A DNA stretch of 64,000 nt from a phage, in sequence record PZ452583.1; one strand, 5' to 3'. Under the pieces are notes generated by a model that had not been told where the DNA came from, did no database searches, and was given only the letters and a program-made list of their open reading frames with translations. Positions within the stretch are counted from its first letter, which is position 1. Every line of letters starts with the position of its first letter. Shown piece after piece: positions 21,929 to 29,128 of this stretch. Made by a program: the position numbers and the translations under genes.

Positions 21929-22893
21929 TGTATTCTTTAGAGGAATTTAATAATCAAGCAATAAACGCAGACTTCCAACGTAATAATATGTTCAGCTGTG
22001 TTTTTGCTACAACTCCATCAACTAAAAGCTCATCGTTAATAAGCTCAATTAGTAACTTTGCTTATAATAACTTGGGTCTAAATTCAGATTGGTTGGGATT
22101 AACTCAAGGTGATATTAATCAGGGAATTACCACGCTAATTACCGCTGGAACACAAAAACTAATAAGAAAATCGGGAGTCAGTAAATATCTTATTGGCGCT
22201 ATGAGTCAGCGTACTGTCCAGAGTTTATTAGGCTCATTTACAGTTGGTACATATTTAATTGACTTCTTTAACATGGCATATAACTCATCTGGATTGATGA
22301 TATATTCTGTAAAAATGCCAGAAAATAGATTATCTTATGAAACTGACTGGAACTATAACTCTCCTAATATTCGTATAACTGGAAGAGAATTAGACCCTTT
22401 GGTTATTTCATTCAGAATGGATTCAGAAGCTTGTAACTATCGTGCAATGCAAGACTGGGTTAACGCTGTTCAAGACCCAGTAACTGGATTGCGTGCTTTG
22501 CCGCAAGATGTCGAGGCAGATATTCAGGTTAATCTTCATTCTCGCAATGGATTGCCTCATACTGCGGTGATGTTCACTGGCTGTATTCCAATATCTGTGA
22601 GTGCTCCTGAGTTATCGTATGATGGAGATAACCAAATAACTACATTTGATGTTACTTTCGCTTATAGAGTCATGCAGGCTGGAGCAGTTGATAGACAAGC
22701 TGCCCTTGAATGGCTTGAATCTGCTACTATAAATGGTATTCAAAGCGTTCTCGGAAATAGTGGAGGTGTTACTGGACTATCTAATTCGCTTTCACGACTT
22801 AGTAGATTAGGGGGAACTGCAGGAAGCATTTCAAATATTAATACTATGACAGGAATTGTCAATTCGCAAAGTAAAATATTAGGAGCAATATAA
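21928..22893 (+). CDS. 54: baseplate tail tube initiator gp54
   Basis: 321-aa ORF, T4 gp54-like; bidirectional terminator downstream. Confidence 0.92.
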   Translation: MYSLEEFNNQAINADFQRNNMFSCVFATTPSTKSSSLISSISNFAYNNLGLNSDWLGLTQGDINQGITTLITAGTQKLIRKSGVSKYLIGAMSQRTVQSLLGSFTVGTYLIDFFNMAYNSSGLMIYSVKMPENRLSYETDWNYNSPNIRITGRELDPLVISFRMDSEACNYRAMQDWVNAVQDPVTGLRALPQDVEADIQVNLHSRNGLPHTAVMFTGCIPISVSAPELSYDGDNQITTFDVTFAYRVMQAGAVDRQAALEWLESATINGIQSVLGNSGGVTGLSNSLSRLSRLGGTAGSISNINTMTGIVNSQSKILGAI

Positions 22894-22897
22894 CAAT

Positions 22898-22927
22898 GGG
22901 GACCTTTCGGTCCCCATATTTTTATTT
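22898..22927. terminator. bidirectional terminator after gene 54
   Basis: GGGGACC-TTTC-GGTCCCC then ATATTTTTATTT. Confidence 0.7.
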
Positions 22928-23212
22928 ACGGAATGAAATAAAAGCAGCAACTGAAGCAACTAAACTGTCTTCAATATAAACTTCAATTTTTACCGGAGCT
23001 TCTGACTCAAATTTACCTGTTACTACACCCTGAAAAATACTTTCAGTCTGTTCTGGCTTTGAAAAATTTTCAGAAGGAAAAATTCCGAACTTTTTATCTG
23101 TTCCAAAAATTTTGATAAATTCATCGTAAACTGCTTCATTAAAAGCATTATCAGCAGGAATAACGCCTTCAACTACAAGTTCTTGACCTAAAAAGCGCAA
23201 AGAAGATTTCAT
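22922..23212 (-). CDS. hypothetical protein (alt-proximal small ORF)
   Basis: 96-aa ORF with SD GAGGAA and early-promoter cassette upstream. Confidence 0.55.
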   Translation of the reverse strand: MKSSLRFLGQELVVEGVIPADNAFNEAVYDEFIKIFGTDKKFGIFPSENFSKPEQTESIFQGVVTGKFESEAPVKIEVYIEDSLVASVAAFISFRK

Positions 23213-23219
23213 TTTGTGT

Positions 23220-23273
23220 TCCTCATGTTATGTCAGTAAGACTACTATAACACAACACGAGGGACTTGTAAAC
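23220..23273 (-). repeat. 54-bp early promoter cassette, copy A
   Basis: 53 of 54 nt identical to 38546-38599. Confidence 0.8.
23244..23272 (-). promoter_or_regulatory. early promoter (TTTACA-17-TATAGT) within 54-bp repeat copy A
   Basis: T4 early-type GTTTAC -35 and TATAGT -10, followed by SD GAGGAA. Confidence 0.6.
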
Positions 23274-25330
23274 TACATTTTGAACTTTTTAGACATTCCG
23301 TTGATGTTAACCAAAGAAGCTAAGATTTGAGAAACTTCGTTTTCCTCTTCTTTTGATTCTTCTACAAGGAATTGATTAAATCCAGCCATTGGACGAACTT
23401 CACCAGTTTCCATTAGATGGTCGCCATCATATACTGATTCTTCTAATTGTTCAGAAGGAGGAACGATTGTACCTTCGATTAGATACTTGTTATAAGCAGT
23501 TTCTTTCATAAAGTAAGTACTTACTTTATTAATCTTCAGTAAAATTCCACGTGGTAGAATAACTTCAGCTTCTGATGGAAATCCTGATAAATGACCTGGA
23601 ACGATAACTTTTATTCGCTCAGCTCCTTTAATTACCATACCCACGCTAGTTTCAGCATCTTCATTAGCATATGTAGAATGACTACCCATATGCATCAAAT
23701 CTTCTGCATCAACGGAACCTTCTCCTTCGCCAGAAAATACTGCACCGGAATCATCTAGAGCCATATAGTTTTTACCATGCTCACCGAAGATATTTGGTTT
23801 AAGTGATGTCGATACGAAGTTCTTGAAATAGAACATTTTATTTTCAATATTGTGACGCAAAGTTTTAAAGGTAACTTCTTGTCCACGGTAAAGTGTAGTT
23901 CCTGGAGGAAGAACTGAACCTTTAGCGAATGCAGAATCCAGCGTCTCAATATGTTTAATAGCTCGTTCCATATATTCTTCACGGGTAGAATCTGGTTTAC
24001 CCAAAAGGAACGAGTTCATTTCAACATATGAATCTGCGCAATAATCTTCAATTACGTCAGATTCAGCCTGAGTTAATCCTTTTGGAGTTACTTCAGTACT
24101 TGCATATTCATATGCCTGAGCGGCAGATTCATTAATCAATTTATAAATGCCATTCATGACAAATTGAATAATAGCTGTCTTTTCATCTGGCGTAGCTTTA
24201 GAACCTTTAACTAAATCATTGATAATTTTCTTAATAACATCAAAGCTATTAGAAATATTAATGTCAGCAAGATCGCTTAAAATTTTATCAGTTTTATAAT
24301 CAAAGAATTCTTTATTCTTTAAATATTCTTGAGAACCTTGATATGTTATATCGCTCTGCAACTTGATAGATGGATCACGTAAACGCGCATGGGCTAATGC
24401 AATATGATTTCGGAAGTTTTCTAGTTCATAATCGTTAGATTTAAAACGAGAAGCACTTCTCATACCACCGATAGCTCCTTTGCCGAAGTTTGAACCAATC
24501 TGAATAACGCCAGAGTTCATTGGTCCTTCTGCTTTATATACCGGAACTTTGGATTCAAACTCTTGATATTTCTTAGCAGCGAAGCTATCACCCTGAAGTG
24601 AAGCATCAACAGTAGAATATTGAGCTTGTGCTGCTAATCGACGACTAATTTTAGTTTTCTGAATAACAGCTTGGTCCGTGCGCTTATCATTTTCTAAAGC
24701 AATAGAAGCAGCAACTGCGACAGCTTTAGGAACAGCATTACCTGTTTTAACGTCTACATAAACATCACCAACCTTTGATTCAACTTTTGTGAATAACTCA
24801 GTTGAAATAGGAGGTACACCTGGAATGTCTTCTAAATTGGCATTTTTACGGTAAACCATAATATATGCGTACTTTTTATCATAATCCCAGATTTCCTTTA
24901 AAAGAACATATCGACCTGCTCCTTTAGTACGTACTAAACGGTCAGCAATAACTTGCATTTGACGAGCAGCGCCATTTGTTTTACTCTTTAGTACGCGGAA
25001 TAAGCATGCATCAATTTTATACTGTTTCATTGTTTGAAGAGCAGTATCAAAAACAGCATTAATGACGCCAATTGGATTTCCACCCAAGTTTTTAAGCTTA
25101 ACTAATGATAGTTTCTCATTAACACCTATCATTACGATATGCATCATTTTGTCGCCTGGCTTAACGTTTTTATTCGTATCACCGCCAGAGGTGTATGTAC
25201 AAAATCTAAATCCAGGGAGAACGCTTTCTTCACCGGCTTGAATAGCAAAAATTTGTGGTATTTTATGCTTAGGATTTAAGTTAACAACCGGCGCCGAAGC
25301 GCCGTCAAATAATTCTGTAATAAGTTCCAT
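23273..25330 (-). CDS. Alt-like ADP-ribosyltransferase, paralog 1
   Basis: 685-aa ORF; N-terminus MELITELFD...; ART R-S-ExE signature (YRGQ, FVSTSL, EAEVILPRG); paralogous to the adjacent upstream gene. Confidence 0.85.
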   Translation of the reverse strand: MELITELFDGASAPVVNLNPKHKIPQIFAIQAGEESVLPGFRFCTYTSGGDTNKNVKPGDKMMHIVMIGVNEKLSLVKLKNLGGNPIGVINAVFDTALQTMKQYKIDACLFRVLKSKTNGAARQMQVIADRLVRTKGAGRYVLLKEIWDYDKKYAYIMVYRKNANLEDIPGVPPISTELFTKVESKVGDVYVDVKTGNAVPKAVAVAASIALENDKRTDQAVIQKTKISRRLAAQAQYSTVDASLQGDSFAAKKYQEFESKVPVYKAEGPMNSGVIQIGSNFGKGAIGGMRSASRFKSNDYELENFRNHIALAHARLRDPSIKLQSDITYQGSQEYLKNKEFFDYKTDKILSDLADINISNSFDVIKKIINDLVKGSKATPDEKTAIIQFVMNGIYKLINESAAQAYEYASTEVTPKGLTQAESDVIEDYCADSYVEMNSFLLGKPDSTREEYMERAIKHIETLDSAFAKGSVLPPGTTLYRGQEVTFKTLRHNIENKMFYFKNFVSTSLKPNIFGEHGKNYMALDDSGAVFSGEGEGSVDAEDLMHMGSHSTYANEDAETSVGMVIKGAERIKVIVPGHLSGFPSEAEVILPRGILLKINKVSTYFMKETAYNKYLIEGTIVPPSEQLEESVYDGDHLMETGEVRPMAGFNQFLVEESKEEENEVSQILASLVNINGMSKKFKM

Positions 25331-25333
25331 GAT

Positions 25334-27427
25334 TTATCCTTGAACGAACTTGTAAGGCATGTTTGTAATATCTATGCAAGACGCAATAATTCCAAGAGAT
25401 GATTCTACTTTCTGTTTAACATTTGATGAAACAAATGATGCAAAGTCAACTCTGTCTTCTATTTCAATATCACCTGTCATTGCAACCAATTCACCAGTTT
25501 CCATTAAATGGTCTCCGTCATAGATTACCGATTCGGTGAGTTCTTCGGTGGTCATAACTTCAGCTTGAATGAGTTTTGTATTATTAGACGTGGTTCCGTC
25601 ATTATTAGAAGCATCAGTTATTTTATTAACTTTGACCATCAATCCGCGCGGTAGAATAACTTCAGCTTCTGTTGCTATTCCGAGACTTCCTGGATATACA
25701 ACATTAACTTTATGAGCTCCATCAATTGCCCATCCTATTTGAACTTTAACGTATTCAGGATTTTCTTTATACGCTCTTATTTCGTTTGGATTAATAGTTA
25801 TTCCTTCTTCATTTTTATCAACTGTCAATTCATTACGAGTTTCTGGTTCTAAAAGACCAATACCAGCATGTGTAATTCCAAAACGTCCAAAAATGATAGG
25901 AGTTAAAGAAGTAGATACAAAATTTCTGAAATAGAACACTTTATTTTTAACTAGTGCTTCGTATATAGGAGCAGTCATACTTTGAGCACGATAAACTGTG
26001 ATGCCTTCCGGTATGCGGTCACCATTTTCAAAAGCTGAATCTAAGTTATTTATAGCAGATTCAATTTCTTTTTCACTCATTACATCATATCGTTCTGGAT
26101 TGTAACGACCTAAAAGAAGATTATTAATGTCAGTATATCCTGAACCGCAATATTCTCTAATGCCACGCTTTTGTGATGGAGTATATTTAGAACCATCGCG
26201 GGCAATAGTAATATCAATCATTGGACCAGCACCAATTCCAGAAAAACTGTAAATCATTCGTTTGAGGAATTTAGTTTTTGCTACGTTCCAGGAATTTTTA
26301 GTTATTTCTTCCCAGACTTCATCTGGTTGTCCTTTACGATTTTTATTATGATTAGCAAGCCATTTATCTTTATAATCTTCAAAGAATTGATTTACAGCTG
26401 CTGCGTATTTCTCTAAACATTTTATTGAAGTAGTTGGTTCATTTTTAATTGCATTAAAAATTACTTCTTTAATTTTTTCTGAAACTTCACCGACTTGACT
26501 CATTGGAAAGAATTTATAATCATAGTGAAGTTCATCTGCCGTTCCTTCAGCAATAATTTTTGCTGCCTTTGTTTTAGAAGCTAATGAATTAATTCCAATT
26601 TTCATTTCTTCTGCTTCGGGAATTAAAGGTGCAGTAGCTGGTTTATTAAAATTAGCTGCTGTAGATTCATACTTCTGGAATAATTCACTTTCAAATCTAG
26701 AAGATTCCAATGATTGACTTTGCGCAATTGCTCTACGGGAAATTTTAACTTTAACGATTACAGCTTGGTCAGAACGTTTATCATTTTCTTGCGCAATAGA
26801 TGCTGCAATTGCCTCATTTTTAGTTACTTGGGCTCCAGTATCTTTATTGATATAAACATCGCCGACTTTCGATTCAACTTTAGTAAAGAGCTCGGTACTA
26901 ATTTCCGGAACTCCTGGAATGTCTTCTAGTGATACATTTTTGCGATGTATAAGAATATATGCATACTTTTTATCATAATCCCAGAGTTCCTTAAGAAGGA
27001 CGTATCTACCACCTGAACGACTACGGATAAGTCTATCAGCAATAACTTGAATTTGTCGAGCTTGGCCAGCAGTTTTAGACTTAAGAATACGAAGCATACA
27101 AGCATCAATTTTATATTGACGCATTGTTTGCATTGCAACAGTAAAAACTGAATTGATATAATTAATCGGGCTTGGACCAAGACCTTTTAATTTAGCAATT
27201 GAACCTTTAGCAGTTAATGTAAAAGGAACAATATGCATCATTTTATCGCCCATCTTTAAATCGCGATTAGTATCACCTCCAGATGTATAGGTACATAAAC
27301 GAAAGCCTGGTTGTTCAATTGCATCATCAACATGAACTGAAAAAATTTGTGGTATTTTCTTCTTTGGATTTAAGTTTGTAATCGGAAGAGTAGTATCTTC
27401 GTCAAATAATTCTGTAATGAGTTCCAT
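25334..27427 (-). CDS. alt: Alt ADP-ribosyltransferase (internal head protein), paralog 2
   Basis: 697-698 aa (two adjacent ATGs at 27430 and 27427); ART signature YRAQ, FVSTSL, EAEVILPRG; late promoter TATAAATA upstream. Confidence 0.88.
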   Translation of the reverse strand: MELITELFDEDTTLPITNLNPKKKIPQIFSVHVDDAIEQPGFRLCTYTSGGDTNRDLKMGDKMMHIVPFTLTAKGSIAKLKGLGPSPINYINSVFTVAMQTMRQYKIDACMLRILKSKTAGQARQIQVIADRLIRSRSGGRYVLLKELWDYDKKYAYILIHRKNVSLEDIPGVPEISTELFTKVESKVGDVYINKDTGAQVTKNEAIAASIAQENDKRSDQAVIVKVKISRRAIAQSQSLESSRFESELFQKYESTAANFNKPATAPLIPEAEEMKIGINSLASKTKAAKIIAEGTADELHYDYKFFPMSQVGEVSEKIKEVIFNAIKNEPTTSIKCLEKYAAAVNQFFEDYKDKWLANHNKNRKGQPDEVWEEITKNSWNVAKTKFLKRMIYSFSGIGAGPMIDITIARDGSKYTPSQKRGIREYCGSGYTDINNLLLGRYNPERYDVMSEKEIESAINNLDSAFENGDRIPEGITVYRAQSMTAPIYEALVKNKVFYFRNFVSTSLTPIIFGRFGITHAGIGLLEPETRNELTVDKNEEGITINPNEIRAYKENPEYVKVQIGWAIDGAHKVNVVYPGSLGIATEAEVILPRGLMVKVNKITDASNNDGTTSNNTKLIQAEVMTTEELTESVIYDGDHLMETGELVAMTGDIEIEDRVDFASFVSSNVKQKVESSLGIIASCIDITNMPYKFVQG

Positions 27428-27450
27428 CATATCCTCTCTAGTGTTTATTC

Positions 27451-27458
27451 TATTTATA
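27451..27458 (-). promoter_or_regulatory. late promoter for alt
   Basis: TATAAATA on minus strand between a hairpin and the alt SD GAGAGGA. Confidence 0.6.
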
Positions 27459-27463
27459 AAATT

Positions 27464-27480
27464 AAAGGCCCGAAGGCCTT
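27464..27480 (-). terminator. hairpin upstream of the alt late promoter
   Basis: AAAGGCC-CGAA-GGCCTTT. Confidence 0.45.
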
Positions 27481-27668
27481 TAATAATCTATTGGTAATAG
27501 AGTACGATATATTTCAAACTTTGGACCTTTTTCATAAGCATCAAAAGTTTCTGTGAATTTATTATAAGCATATGCATCTATAAATTCAATCATGATTTGC
27601 GATACAGAAGTAGAAACATCTCCACCTTCTTTTTGAGCCACGACAATTGTTTCTAAGTAAGCTTTCAT
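27480..27668 (-). CDS. hypothetical protein
   Basis: 62-aa ORF coupled to gene 30 stop. Confidence 0.5.
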   Translation of the reverse strand: MKAYLETIVVAQKEGGDVSTSVSQIMIEFIDAYAYNKFTETFDAYEKGPKFEIYRTLLPIDY

Positions 27669-29128
27669 AAACCAGTTACCTCATGAAAATCGCCAAATAC
27701 ATCTTCGAACGTATTAGCTTTAGTTTTATCTTCACGTAAACGAATCGCAATTGGAAGAAATAATTTAACGTAATCGGTGCGGCCATCAGATTTTAACCAA
27801 CCGTTGCATTCGCACTCTAGAATTTTTCCAATATAATAATTTTGGTTTTCCATAATGCGAGTACGGTCAAGTTCATGCGATTTTACACCGGCTTTATCTT
27901 TTAAGCCTGAACCAGCATTTACTTTAATTTTTCCACACTCTGACTCAAGAATAAATCCACCCGCTTTAGTAGGGTCTTTACGGTGAGGATAAATTCCTAC
28001 AATTTTTAAATCAACATCAATTACTTCTTTAAATTTATAAAGATTTTTTGAACGAGCATTTTCCCATAATCCATCGATATTTTTGAGAATAATACCTTCA
28101 AGACCTTGGTCAATATACTTTTTGTAAATTACCTTAGCTTCATCTAGGTTATTTACTACTTGGTTTTCAATTAAAATTACTTTATCATAGCCTGATGTCA
28201 TTTGTTCTAGTTTAGAAAAACGTACATCATATTTTAAACGAAACGCTGGAAGACAATATATTTCTACTAATGGAACATAGTCCCAGACCTGAAACTTCAT
28301 GCATTGTGCTTCTTTTTCAGAAATGGTTCCCTTTAAAGATTTATTAGCGATTCCATTAGAAGTAGTACGTGATTCAGCTACTTCAGCGAATTCTTTAGCT
28401 TTACTAATTTCAGGATAAGCATCAAAAAGAAAATCTAGGCCTTCTGGTTCATTTTCAACTTGCTCATGGTATACCAATTCGCCATCAATTAACACACCTT
28501 CTGGATGAATCTGGCGAGCTTCTGCAGTCATTTTGATTAACTCTTCCTTGAGAAGATCTAATCCTAGATATTCATTACCAGCTCGTGATAAAAGACGAAC
28601 ATCATCTAATTCATCACCTCTGACTTCAGCAAAGCACCGAGCTCCATCAGCTTTTAACTGGGCAAAAGCTGGAAATTTGATATTCTTATTAATGCCTTTT
28701 TCATCATAAGAACTTGCAAGCATTTGAGGTTGTTCAGGAATTAAACCTGGCCAAACTTTGTTTGCAATAGATACTGAAGCACCGCATTCAAGGTCTCGCA
28801 TCATCACACGACGCAAAACTTCAACATCATCTTTTTTACCGTCAGTAATATATCCAGTTAATTCCTCAATTGCCGCATTTCCAGTCAATTTCCGAGTAGC
28901 TAACGTTAATTCAATGAAGTCAAGCATATCGGTAAGAGTCAACATTCCAAAACTCTGGGTAGCAATACCCGGTTTAGGCCATTTCTTGATATAATACTGT
29001 AACCCGCGAGAATAAGTCAGACGATATACTCGTTTAAGCAATTCATTATCTTTGTTCTTTTCAAGAATTGCTTGCTTCTGCTTAGTTGAACCAATAGATG
29101 CTATTTCGTTCAGAATTTTAAGAATCAT
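27665..29128 (-). CDS. 30: ATP-dependent DNA ligase gp30
   Basis: 487-aa ORF with adenylation motif KADGAR; T4 DNA ligase length. Confidence 0.95.
   Translation of the reverse strand: MILKILNEIASIGSTKQKQAILEKNKDNELLKRVYRLTYSRGLQYYIKKWPKPGIATQSFGMLTLTDMLDFIELTLATRKLTGNAAIEELTGYITDGKKDDVEVLRRVMMRDLECGASVSIANKVWPGLIPEQPQMLASSYDEKGINKNIKFPAFAQLKADGARCFAEVRGDELDDVRLLSRAGNEYLGLDLLKEELIKMTAEARQIHPEGVLIDGELVYHEQVENEPEGLDFLFDAYPEISKAKEFAEVAESRTTSNGIANKSLKGTISEKEAQCMKFQVWDYVPLVEIYCLPAFRLKYDVRFSKLEQMTSGYDKVILIENQVVNNLDEAKVIYKKYIDQGLEGIILKNIDGLWENARSKNLYKFKEVIDVDLKIVGIYPHRKDPTKAGGFILESECGKIKVNAGSGLKDKAGVKSHELDRTRIMENQNYYIGKILECECNGWLKSDGRTDYVKLFLPIAIRLREDKTKANTFEDVFGDFHEVTGL

Follow-up and report, generated by a model that had tools for sequence, protein, structure and literature searches.

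The tandem alt genes of the window

The DNA analysed here (hereafter the window) is a stretch of 64,000 nucleotides (nt) from sequence record PZ452583.1, a segment of a Tequatrovirus (T4-like) genome, and our subject is a pair of adjacent genes within it that encode ADP-ribosyltransferases (ARTs) of the Alt type. We refer to the upstream gene as alt-1 and to the downstream gene as alt-2. The closest DNA match to the region 22900-27700 was Escherichia phage AV122 (98.7%, full length), and the genes follow each other in the order gp48, gp54, alt.-3, the two alt genes, alt.1 and the DNA ligase gene gp30. The two genes themselves, with product lengths in amino acids (aa), are as follows:

alt-1, 25334..27427, minus strand: Alt ADP-ribosyltransferase of 697 aa, a mosaic allele
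alt-2, 23273..25330, minus strand: Alt paralogue of 685 aa

An initial annotation of the window had noted two adjacent minus-strand Alt-type open reading frames (ORFs) of 685 and 698 aa with a common N-terminal region and a strongly diverged centre, and both the positions and the lengths were borne out, with a small change at the start of the upstream gene. Its ORF (25334..27430, 698 aa) opens with MMELITELFD, i.e., with two ATG codons, and the annotation of related phages places the start at the second of these (27427), which results in a product of 697 aa and fits the MELITE propeptide of T4 Alt. Only 3 nt separate alt-1 from alt-2, and direct repeats in the DNA, spaced ~2,094-2,103 nt apart, also show the duplication. 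Pairwise alignment of the two proteins gave 41% identity overall (BLASTP, E = 5e-158), distributed in the manner that had been described: 55-75% identity in residues 1-238 and 15-45% beyond, with 29% identity between the modules comprising the central region and the ART domain. No exact sequence of either protein was present in the protein collection.

Distribution of alt-2 and its remnant in T4

The T4 reference carries one alt gene of 682 aa, in agreement with the initial annotation, followed by the small ORFs alt.-1, alt.-2 and alt.-3. According to the GenBank note for T4, alt.-1 and alt.-2 go back to an old duplication of the initial part of alt, and alignment to the window showed them to run collinear with codons 1 to ~116 of alt-2. 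At the DNA level, T4 positions 123065-123450 (NC_000866) can be matched to alt-2 nucleotide by nucleotide along its 5' ~350 nt, with ~95% identity, and again over its final 11 nt, the flanks being the same (the alt stop upstream, alt.-3 downstream). Two lesions are evident in T4: a 1-nt deletion that splits the frame, and a separate deletion of 1,699 base pairs (bp), by which the remainder of the gene, ART domain included, is lost down to the last 11 nt. The products of T4 alt.-1 and alt.-2 are remnants of 61 and 67 aa which, unlike alt-2 of the window, have lost this domain, and alt-2 matches the PHROGs of both fragments (23015 with E = 2e-40 and 15247 with E = 3e-38). In the coordinates of the window the larger lesion corresponds to:

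Segment of alt-2 missing in T4, ~23284..24983, minus strand: 1,699 bp, flanked by the microhomology CTAAA(G/A)AGT; bounds approximate

Of 500 records, 91 have the junction left by this T4-type deletion as a contiguous sequence. Since wild sewage isolates are among them, the T4 form of the locus is a naturally occurring allele rather than an artefact of the laboratory. The intact arrangement is found more widely. The whole locus was covered to at least 80% in 346 of the 542 matching records, and the part specific to alt-2 (residues 241-685) was detected at an identity of at least 95% in 402 records. Phages T2 and T6 possess the same intact pair of 697 and 685 aa, which is 97% and 99% identical to that of the window, and the alt.-2 or Alt-like genes of T2, T6, RB14, RB51, RB18, SH7, AV122 and other phages are the same gene as alt-2, being 96-100% identical in amino acid sequence, 685-686 aa long and located at the same position. 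The gene of the window shows no difference of substance from these; hundreds of records already annotate this gene, of which the window has one more allele. It is labelled “alt.-1” or “alt.-2” in the records of T2, T6 and RB14, and the records of T2 and T6 also describe it as “apparent insertion in alt.-2; also similar to alt”. In RefSeq both genes are named “Alt-like RNA polymerase ADP-ribosyltransferase”.

The literature likewise contains the duplication. T4 alt.-1/alt.-2, as well as the duplication of alt at full length in Aeromonas phage 44RR, were listed as paralogous duplications by Nolan et al. (2006; PMC1524935), and a characterisation paper from 2026 reports a pair of Alt-like paralogues, 43% identical, in a Tequatrovirus phage, accompanied by the same functional speculation as in the initial annotation (PMC13600099). 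For the alt locus of T-even phages the tandem pair is thus ordinary, already known and annotated. The novelty implied by the initial annotation is not upheld, given the remnant in T4, the same intact pair in T2, T6, RB14, RB51 and ~400 records, and the two papers; an identical arrangement in T4 with both genes characterised, named there as a ground for refutation, is absent, T4 having a remnant of the same gene.

Selection and age

To describe the selection acting on the two genes, the ratio of non-synonymous to synonymous substitution rates (dN/dS) was calculated pairwise by the Nei-Gojobori method among the window, AV122, G28 and OES_C-2. Values were 0.01-0.07 for alt-2, with 26-81 synonymous as compared to 1-19 non-synonymous differences, and 0.04-0.09 for alt-1.

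A positional orthologue of alt-2 is present outside the genus, in Dhakavirus LQ5 (LQ5_c), with a module identity of 53%. Most flanking genes show similar values between the window and LQ5 (gp30, gp54, gp48 and gp27 at 55-64%; gp29 at 35%), and the duplication must therefore be older than the split between Tequatrovirus and Dhakavirus. Tandem Alt paralogues occupy the same locus in the Dhakavirus genomes LQ5, 04086 and JS10, where LQ5_b corresponds to alt-1 and LQ5_c to alt-2. The Dhakavirus arrangement differs by a third, more distant copy upstream, of 631 aa and with ~30% module identity to all others, so that the interval from ligase/alt.1 to alt.-3/gp54 holds three tandem Alt genes in LQ5 (631, 693 and 707 aa); a frameshift interrupts the third Alt copy of 04086.

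The catalytic domain

Both proteins match PF03496 (ADPrib_exo_Tox) well above the gathering score of 23.4, with 128.4 bits for alt-1 and 71.9 bits for alt-2, and over their whole length they match PHROG 802 (“Alt-like RNA polymerase ADP-ribosyltransferase”; E = 4e-273 and E = 1e-256, respectively); NCBIfam has no family for alt-1, alt-2 or T4 Alt. The R-S-ExE set that had been reported from the initial reading is complete in the two copies, neither of which lacks the triad: alt-1 has YRAQ at 479 (R480), STS at 505 and EAE at 587-589, and alt-2 has YRGQ at 481 (R482), STS at 507 and EAE at 587-589. In an alignment of 22 sequences R482, S507, S509, E587 and E589 (alt-2 numbering) are invariant, and across 59 homologues the catalytic residues are again invariant or nearly so. 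The least conserved part is a stretch of 69-80 residues between S-T-S and E-x-E.

The AlphaFold model of alt-2 has a mean pLDDT of 74.7, with 80-92 in the catalytic region, and consists of an alpha/beta N-terminal domain (~15-215), a long helical region (250-470) and the ART core, with disordered termini at 1-11 and 629-685. As predicted by this model, alt-2 has an ART fold that resembles solved enzymes of the C3/VIP2 type. A sequence search of the PDB with alt-2 returned nothing at E <= 1, and to our knowledge no structure of an Alt protein has been solved. Toxins of the R-S-E clade (C3, VIP2, iota, CDTa and Vis) are 13-25% identical to the Alt proteins; they differ in having neither the Alt N-terminal domain nor the propeptides cleaved by gp21, in using other delivery routes, and in the segment from S-T-S to E-x-E, which in Alt is much longer (69-80 aa) and variable.

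Within this clade E-x-E denotes arginine specificity (the C2/iota/VIP2 group) and Q-x-E the C3 group, and from the E-x-E motif we infer that the Alt proteins would carry out arginine-directed mono-ADP-ribosylation. T4 Alt modifies Arg265 of the RNA polymerase alpha subunit, and T4 Alt is the only family member for which we know of determined targets. As the module of alt-2 is only 29% identical to that of alt-1, the substrates of alt-2 probably differ from those of alt-1. A different target for the second copy, as put forward in the initial annotation, is plausible in the light of this module identity.

A point of numbering should be mentioned for T4 Alt, where the E-x-E motif reads E574-M-E576 when counted from the annotated start, and the inactive mutant is named E577A in PMC11404850; this is probably a numbering offset.

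The N-terminal domain and predicted packaging and processing

The N-terminal domain shared by the two copies (~235-238 aa; N-domain hereafter) has a narrow distribution. Among 1.84 billion representative proteins it was found in just 69 clusters, and in all of these it was N-terminal; full-length clusters with this domain have ~600-712 aa, and PF03496 was detected in 57 of the 59 long members scanned. Cargo other than an ART on the Alt N-domain was considered and rejected on the basis of these 57 representatives, no other family appearing in the set. When the first 237 aa were scanned by themselves against the Pfam copy used, no family was returned. The distribution fits a dedicated packaging or delivery domain of this enzyme family. 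In the protein database, PF26846, a newer family that is missing from this Pfam copy, is listed on nearly all full-length Alt homologues and presumably models the N-domain.

Mass spectrometry of T4 Alt has revealed that the prohead protease gp21 trims both ends, cutting at ITE-6 to take 6 residues from the N-terminus and at LTE-619 to take 63 from the C-terminus (PMC5694885; PMC9026906). At the aligned positions both proteins of the window contain gp21 motifs, as judged by the sequence motif only: ITE-6 and LTE-632 in alt-1, ITE-6 and LEE-631 in alt-2. Six paralogues from two genera have an invariant glutamate at each of the two cleavage sites, and the predicted propeptides fall on the termini that are disordered in the alt-2 model. 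Cleavage at these positions would give mature proteins with predicted masses of 70.2 kDa (alt-1) and 69.1 kDa (alt-2). From the domain and the motifs, alt-2 is most likely packaged, processed and injected.

The probable transcription unit

The sequence elements that may control the expression of the two genes are these:

Terminator-like hairpin, GC-rich (TTAAAGGCCTTCGGGCCTTTAA), 27462..27483, minus strand: overlaps the alt.1 stop
Late promoter motif of the T4 type (TATAAATA), 27451..27458, minus strand: 20 nt upstream of the alt-1 start at 27427
Shine-Dalgarno sequence of alt-1 (GAGAGGA), 27432-27438, minus strand
Second TATAAATA, 26047..26054, minus strand: inside alt-1, codons A-I-N-N (conserved)
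Shine-Dalgarno sequence of alt-2 (AAGGA), within 25327-25342 (CAAGGATAAATCATGG), minus strand: inside the end of alt-1
Promoter of the sigma-70 type, 23244..23272, minus strand: TTTACA, 17-nt spacer and TATAGT, with a preceding TG; immediately behind the stop codon of alt-2
Bidirectional terminator hairpin, 22896..22917, no strand assigned: between alt.-3 and the converging gene 54

The hairpin at 27462-27483, which was read directly and is unlisted by a simple terminator scan, is conserved in AV122, T2, T6, T4 and G28, and it is a terminator-like element that separates the early/middle unit upstream from the late unit of the alt genes. It is directly followed by TATAAATA at 27451-27458 and then by the Shine-Dalgarno sequence, and the block formed by the hairpin, TATAAATA, GAGAGGA and the alt-1 start is identical in T2, T4, T6, AV122 and G28. 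T4 expresses its alt gene late (PMC9697503). The junction between alt-1 and alt-2 is also kept in T4, where it stands ahead of the remnant.

The terminator scan found no terminator-like site on the coding strand between alt-1 and alt-2, and there is no TATAAATA within 700 nt of alt-2; the second TATAAATA, inside alt-1, lies 717 nt upstream of its start. The initial annotation had assigned a late promoter to the upstream copy only. Its own TATAAATA is there as described, and the word “only” needs the small correction that a second one lies within alt-1. As a promoter of alt-2 this internal copy was rejected: the motif is frequent by chance (18 in the window as compared to 8.5 expected), and this copy, which occurs only in window-type alt-1 genes and is missing from the Dhakavirus orthologue LQ5_b, is absent from alt-1 genes of the T4 type, a type that also precedes an intact alt-2 in SH7. 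It is probably incidental. Co-transcription of alt-2 from the late promoter of alt-1, which had also been proposed initially, appears to be the simplest and best reading of the 3-nt spacer and of the lack of a promoter of its own. The sigma-70-type promoter that follows alt-2 is conserved in T4 and would drive alt.-3, and the hairpin at 22896-22917 is likely the 3' end of the alt transcription unit.

Mosaicism of alt-1 and possible exchange of modules

T4 Alt (NP_049811, gpalt; PHROG 802, PF03496) is a capsid-packaged, injected and arginine-specific mono-ADP-ribosyltransferase, to which alt-1 is 72% and alt-2 45% identical over the full length. It shares with both proteins of the window the N-domain, R-S-ExE and the ITE-6 and L-x-E motifs, along with the late promoter motif ahead of the first gene and the place between gene 30/alt.1 and gene 54. 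The difference lies in the modules, where identity to T4 Alt is 48% for alt-1 and 31% for alt-2. For alt-1 the boundaries are sharp: its DNA is 96-99% identical to T4 alt in codons 1-240 and ~98% in codons 641-697, as opposed to 44-70% in codons 241-600, and the protein is correspondingly 96-100% identical in residues 1-240 and ~640-697, with the divergent central-plus-ART module in between. Tequatrovirus phages have both types of alt-1 module in circulation. The alt-1 module of the window type was found at an identity of at least 80% in ~350 records, while genomes of the T4 type have ~46% identity to the window module. Either type of alt-1 module can precede an intact alt-2, as in SH7, which combines a T4-type alt-1 with alt-2.

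The comparison with Dhakavirus extends this picture beyond the genus. The module of LQ5_b is 81% identical to that of alt-1, a value above those of the flanking genes (55-64%; gp29 35%), which suggests that the alt-1 module has been exchanged between the genera, as it is more similar than vertical descent would give. Among the N-domains (residues 1-235) of the window and of LQ5 copies a, b and c, paralogues within one genome share 63-68% identity as compared to 43-46% for orthologues across genera, so that catalytic modules group by orthology and N-domains by genome. This pattern suggests that the N-domains evolve in concert or that they co-evolve with the capsid core of their own phage. That the two genes of the window have recently undergone gene conversion was considered and rejected, given an identity of 40-63% at third codon positions of the N-domain and a longest exact shared stretch of 22 nt.

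Function of the second alt copy

We consider it likely that alt-2 is a functional and long-established paralogue of T4 alt, that its presence represents the ancestral majority state of the alt locus in Tequatrovirus, and that T4 is derived by loss. This interpretation is carried by the integrity of the gene, its motifs and predicted fold, the purifying selection acting on it, the conservation of the cleavage motifs, its distribution and the remnant in T4. What we infer beyond these is that the two genes are co-transcribed, that alt-2 is packaged and injected, and that it is arginine-specific with targets of its own; the scenario would run as follows. Late transcription would start from TATAAATA at 27451-27458 and proceed through alt-1 into alt-2, which would be translated from its own Shine-Dalgarno sequence. 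Both proteins would enter the prohead core by means of the shared ~235-aa N-domain and the terminal propeptides, whereupon gp21 would cut at ITE-6, taking off the first 6 residues, and would shorten the C-terminus by ~54-65 residues (at LTE-632 in alt-1 and LEE-631 in alt-2). The mature proteins of ~69-70 kDa would then be ejected with the DNA, and their ART domains of the C3/VIP2 type could mono-ADP-ribosylate host proteins with NAD+ in an arginine-specific manner, the substrate spectrum of alt-2 probably being other than that of alt-1, given the 29% identity of the central helical region and ART module.

Several points weigh against this interpretation. The virion proteome of Shigella phage SH7 showed the upstream copy only, with 2 peptides and 3% coverage (PMC5238451); this run yielded just 13 proteins and is a weak negative, too shallow to count against alt-2. 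Co-transcription is argued from the lack of a recognisable terminator or dedicated promoter, and the E-x-E rule and the divergence of the sequences are the basis for extrapolating to arginine specificity and to separate targets. The searchable literature yields no biochemical, proteomic or other experiment on the second alt copy. Furthermore, T4 and ~91 related records are without alt-2, which indicates that the gene is dispensable at least on laboratory hosts.

Three other explanations for the second copy were weighed. It could be a redundant dosage copy that modifies the same host proteins as alt-1 (e.g., RNA polymerase alpha at Arg265) and adds enzyme or robustness, as might be expected from the common architecture, catalytic residues, cleavage motifs and operon of the two copies and from the loss of alt-2 in T4 without a known phenotype. 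The modules are, however, only 29% identical to each other, while alt-2 is 96-100% identical within the genus and 53% to Dhakavirus, and the long retention of two diverged modules under strong purifying selection fits separate functions better, so that we regard redundancy as unlikely. It is somewhat less likely still that alt-2 is made late but not injected, either acting in the producing cell or being mainly structural in the prohead core with a secondary ART activity. Such a role would be in keeping with the SH7 proteome mentioned above and with the description of T4 Alt as an important core protein (PMC11404850), but alt-2 retains the Alt N-domain, both propeptide motifs and invariant catalytic residues, which would be needless for a purely structural or intracellular protein.

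The deleted and frameshifted remnant in T4 and ~91 records could, on the other hand, point to a young pseudogene that is heading to the T4 state. A decaying duplicate is excluded by the dN/dS of 0.01-0.07, the full-length ORF is unbroken in all the two-copy genomes looked at (the window, AV122, G28, OES_C-2, T2, T6 and SH7), and an orthologue has been kept in another genus; we consider this explanation effectively refuted, with hardly any probability left to it.

A broader scenario, in which alt is a modular locus for the exchange of effectors, is put forward more tentatively, as possible though improbable. Here a genus-specific N-domain for packaging would be kept while ART cassettes are swapped (also between genera), duplicated or lost, with gene conversion or co-evolution with the capsid core accounting for the likeness of N-domains among paralogues, and alt-2 would equip phages of the T2/T6 type to act on an additional host-takeover or anti-defence target that T4 cannot modify. 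If true, the activity of alt-2 could underlie some of the differences between T2, T4 and T6 in their sensitivity to host defences.

Returning to alt-2 as a functional paralogue that T4 has lost, nearly all knowledge of injected phage ADP-ribosyltransferases comes from T4, which is atypical here in possessing a particular alt-1 allele and no alt-2, a gene that T2, T6 and most relatives from the wild have kept. If alt-2 has substrates of its own, they would represent a part of the T-even early host-takeover programme that has never been studied. The question of its targets is not specific to the window, and the natural presence and absence alleles of alt-2 make it easy to test.

Neighbouring genes

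No Rfam families were detected in 22000-28500 and no tRNA genes in the window. The genes on either side of the alt pair are:

alt.1 homologue, 27480-27668, minus strand: 62 aa, Pfam PF24647 ‘Phage blade protein’ (E = 7.5e-29)
alt.-3 homologue, 22922..23212, minus strand: 96 aa, DUF5498; a neighbour and not an ART

In T4, mutants with a C-terminal extension of Alt.-3 escape CmdTAC, an ADP-ribosyltransferase defence system (PMC11618068).

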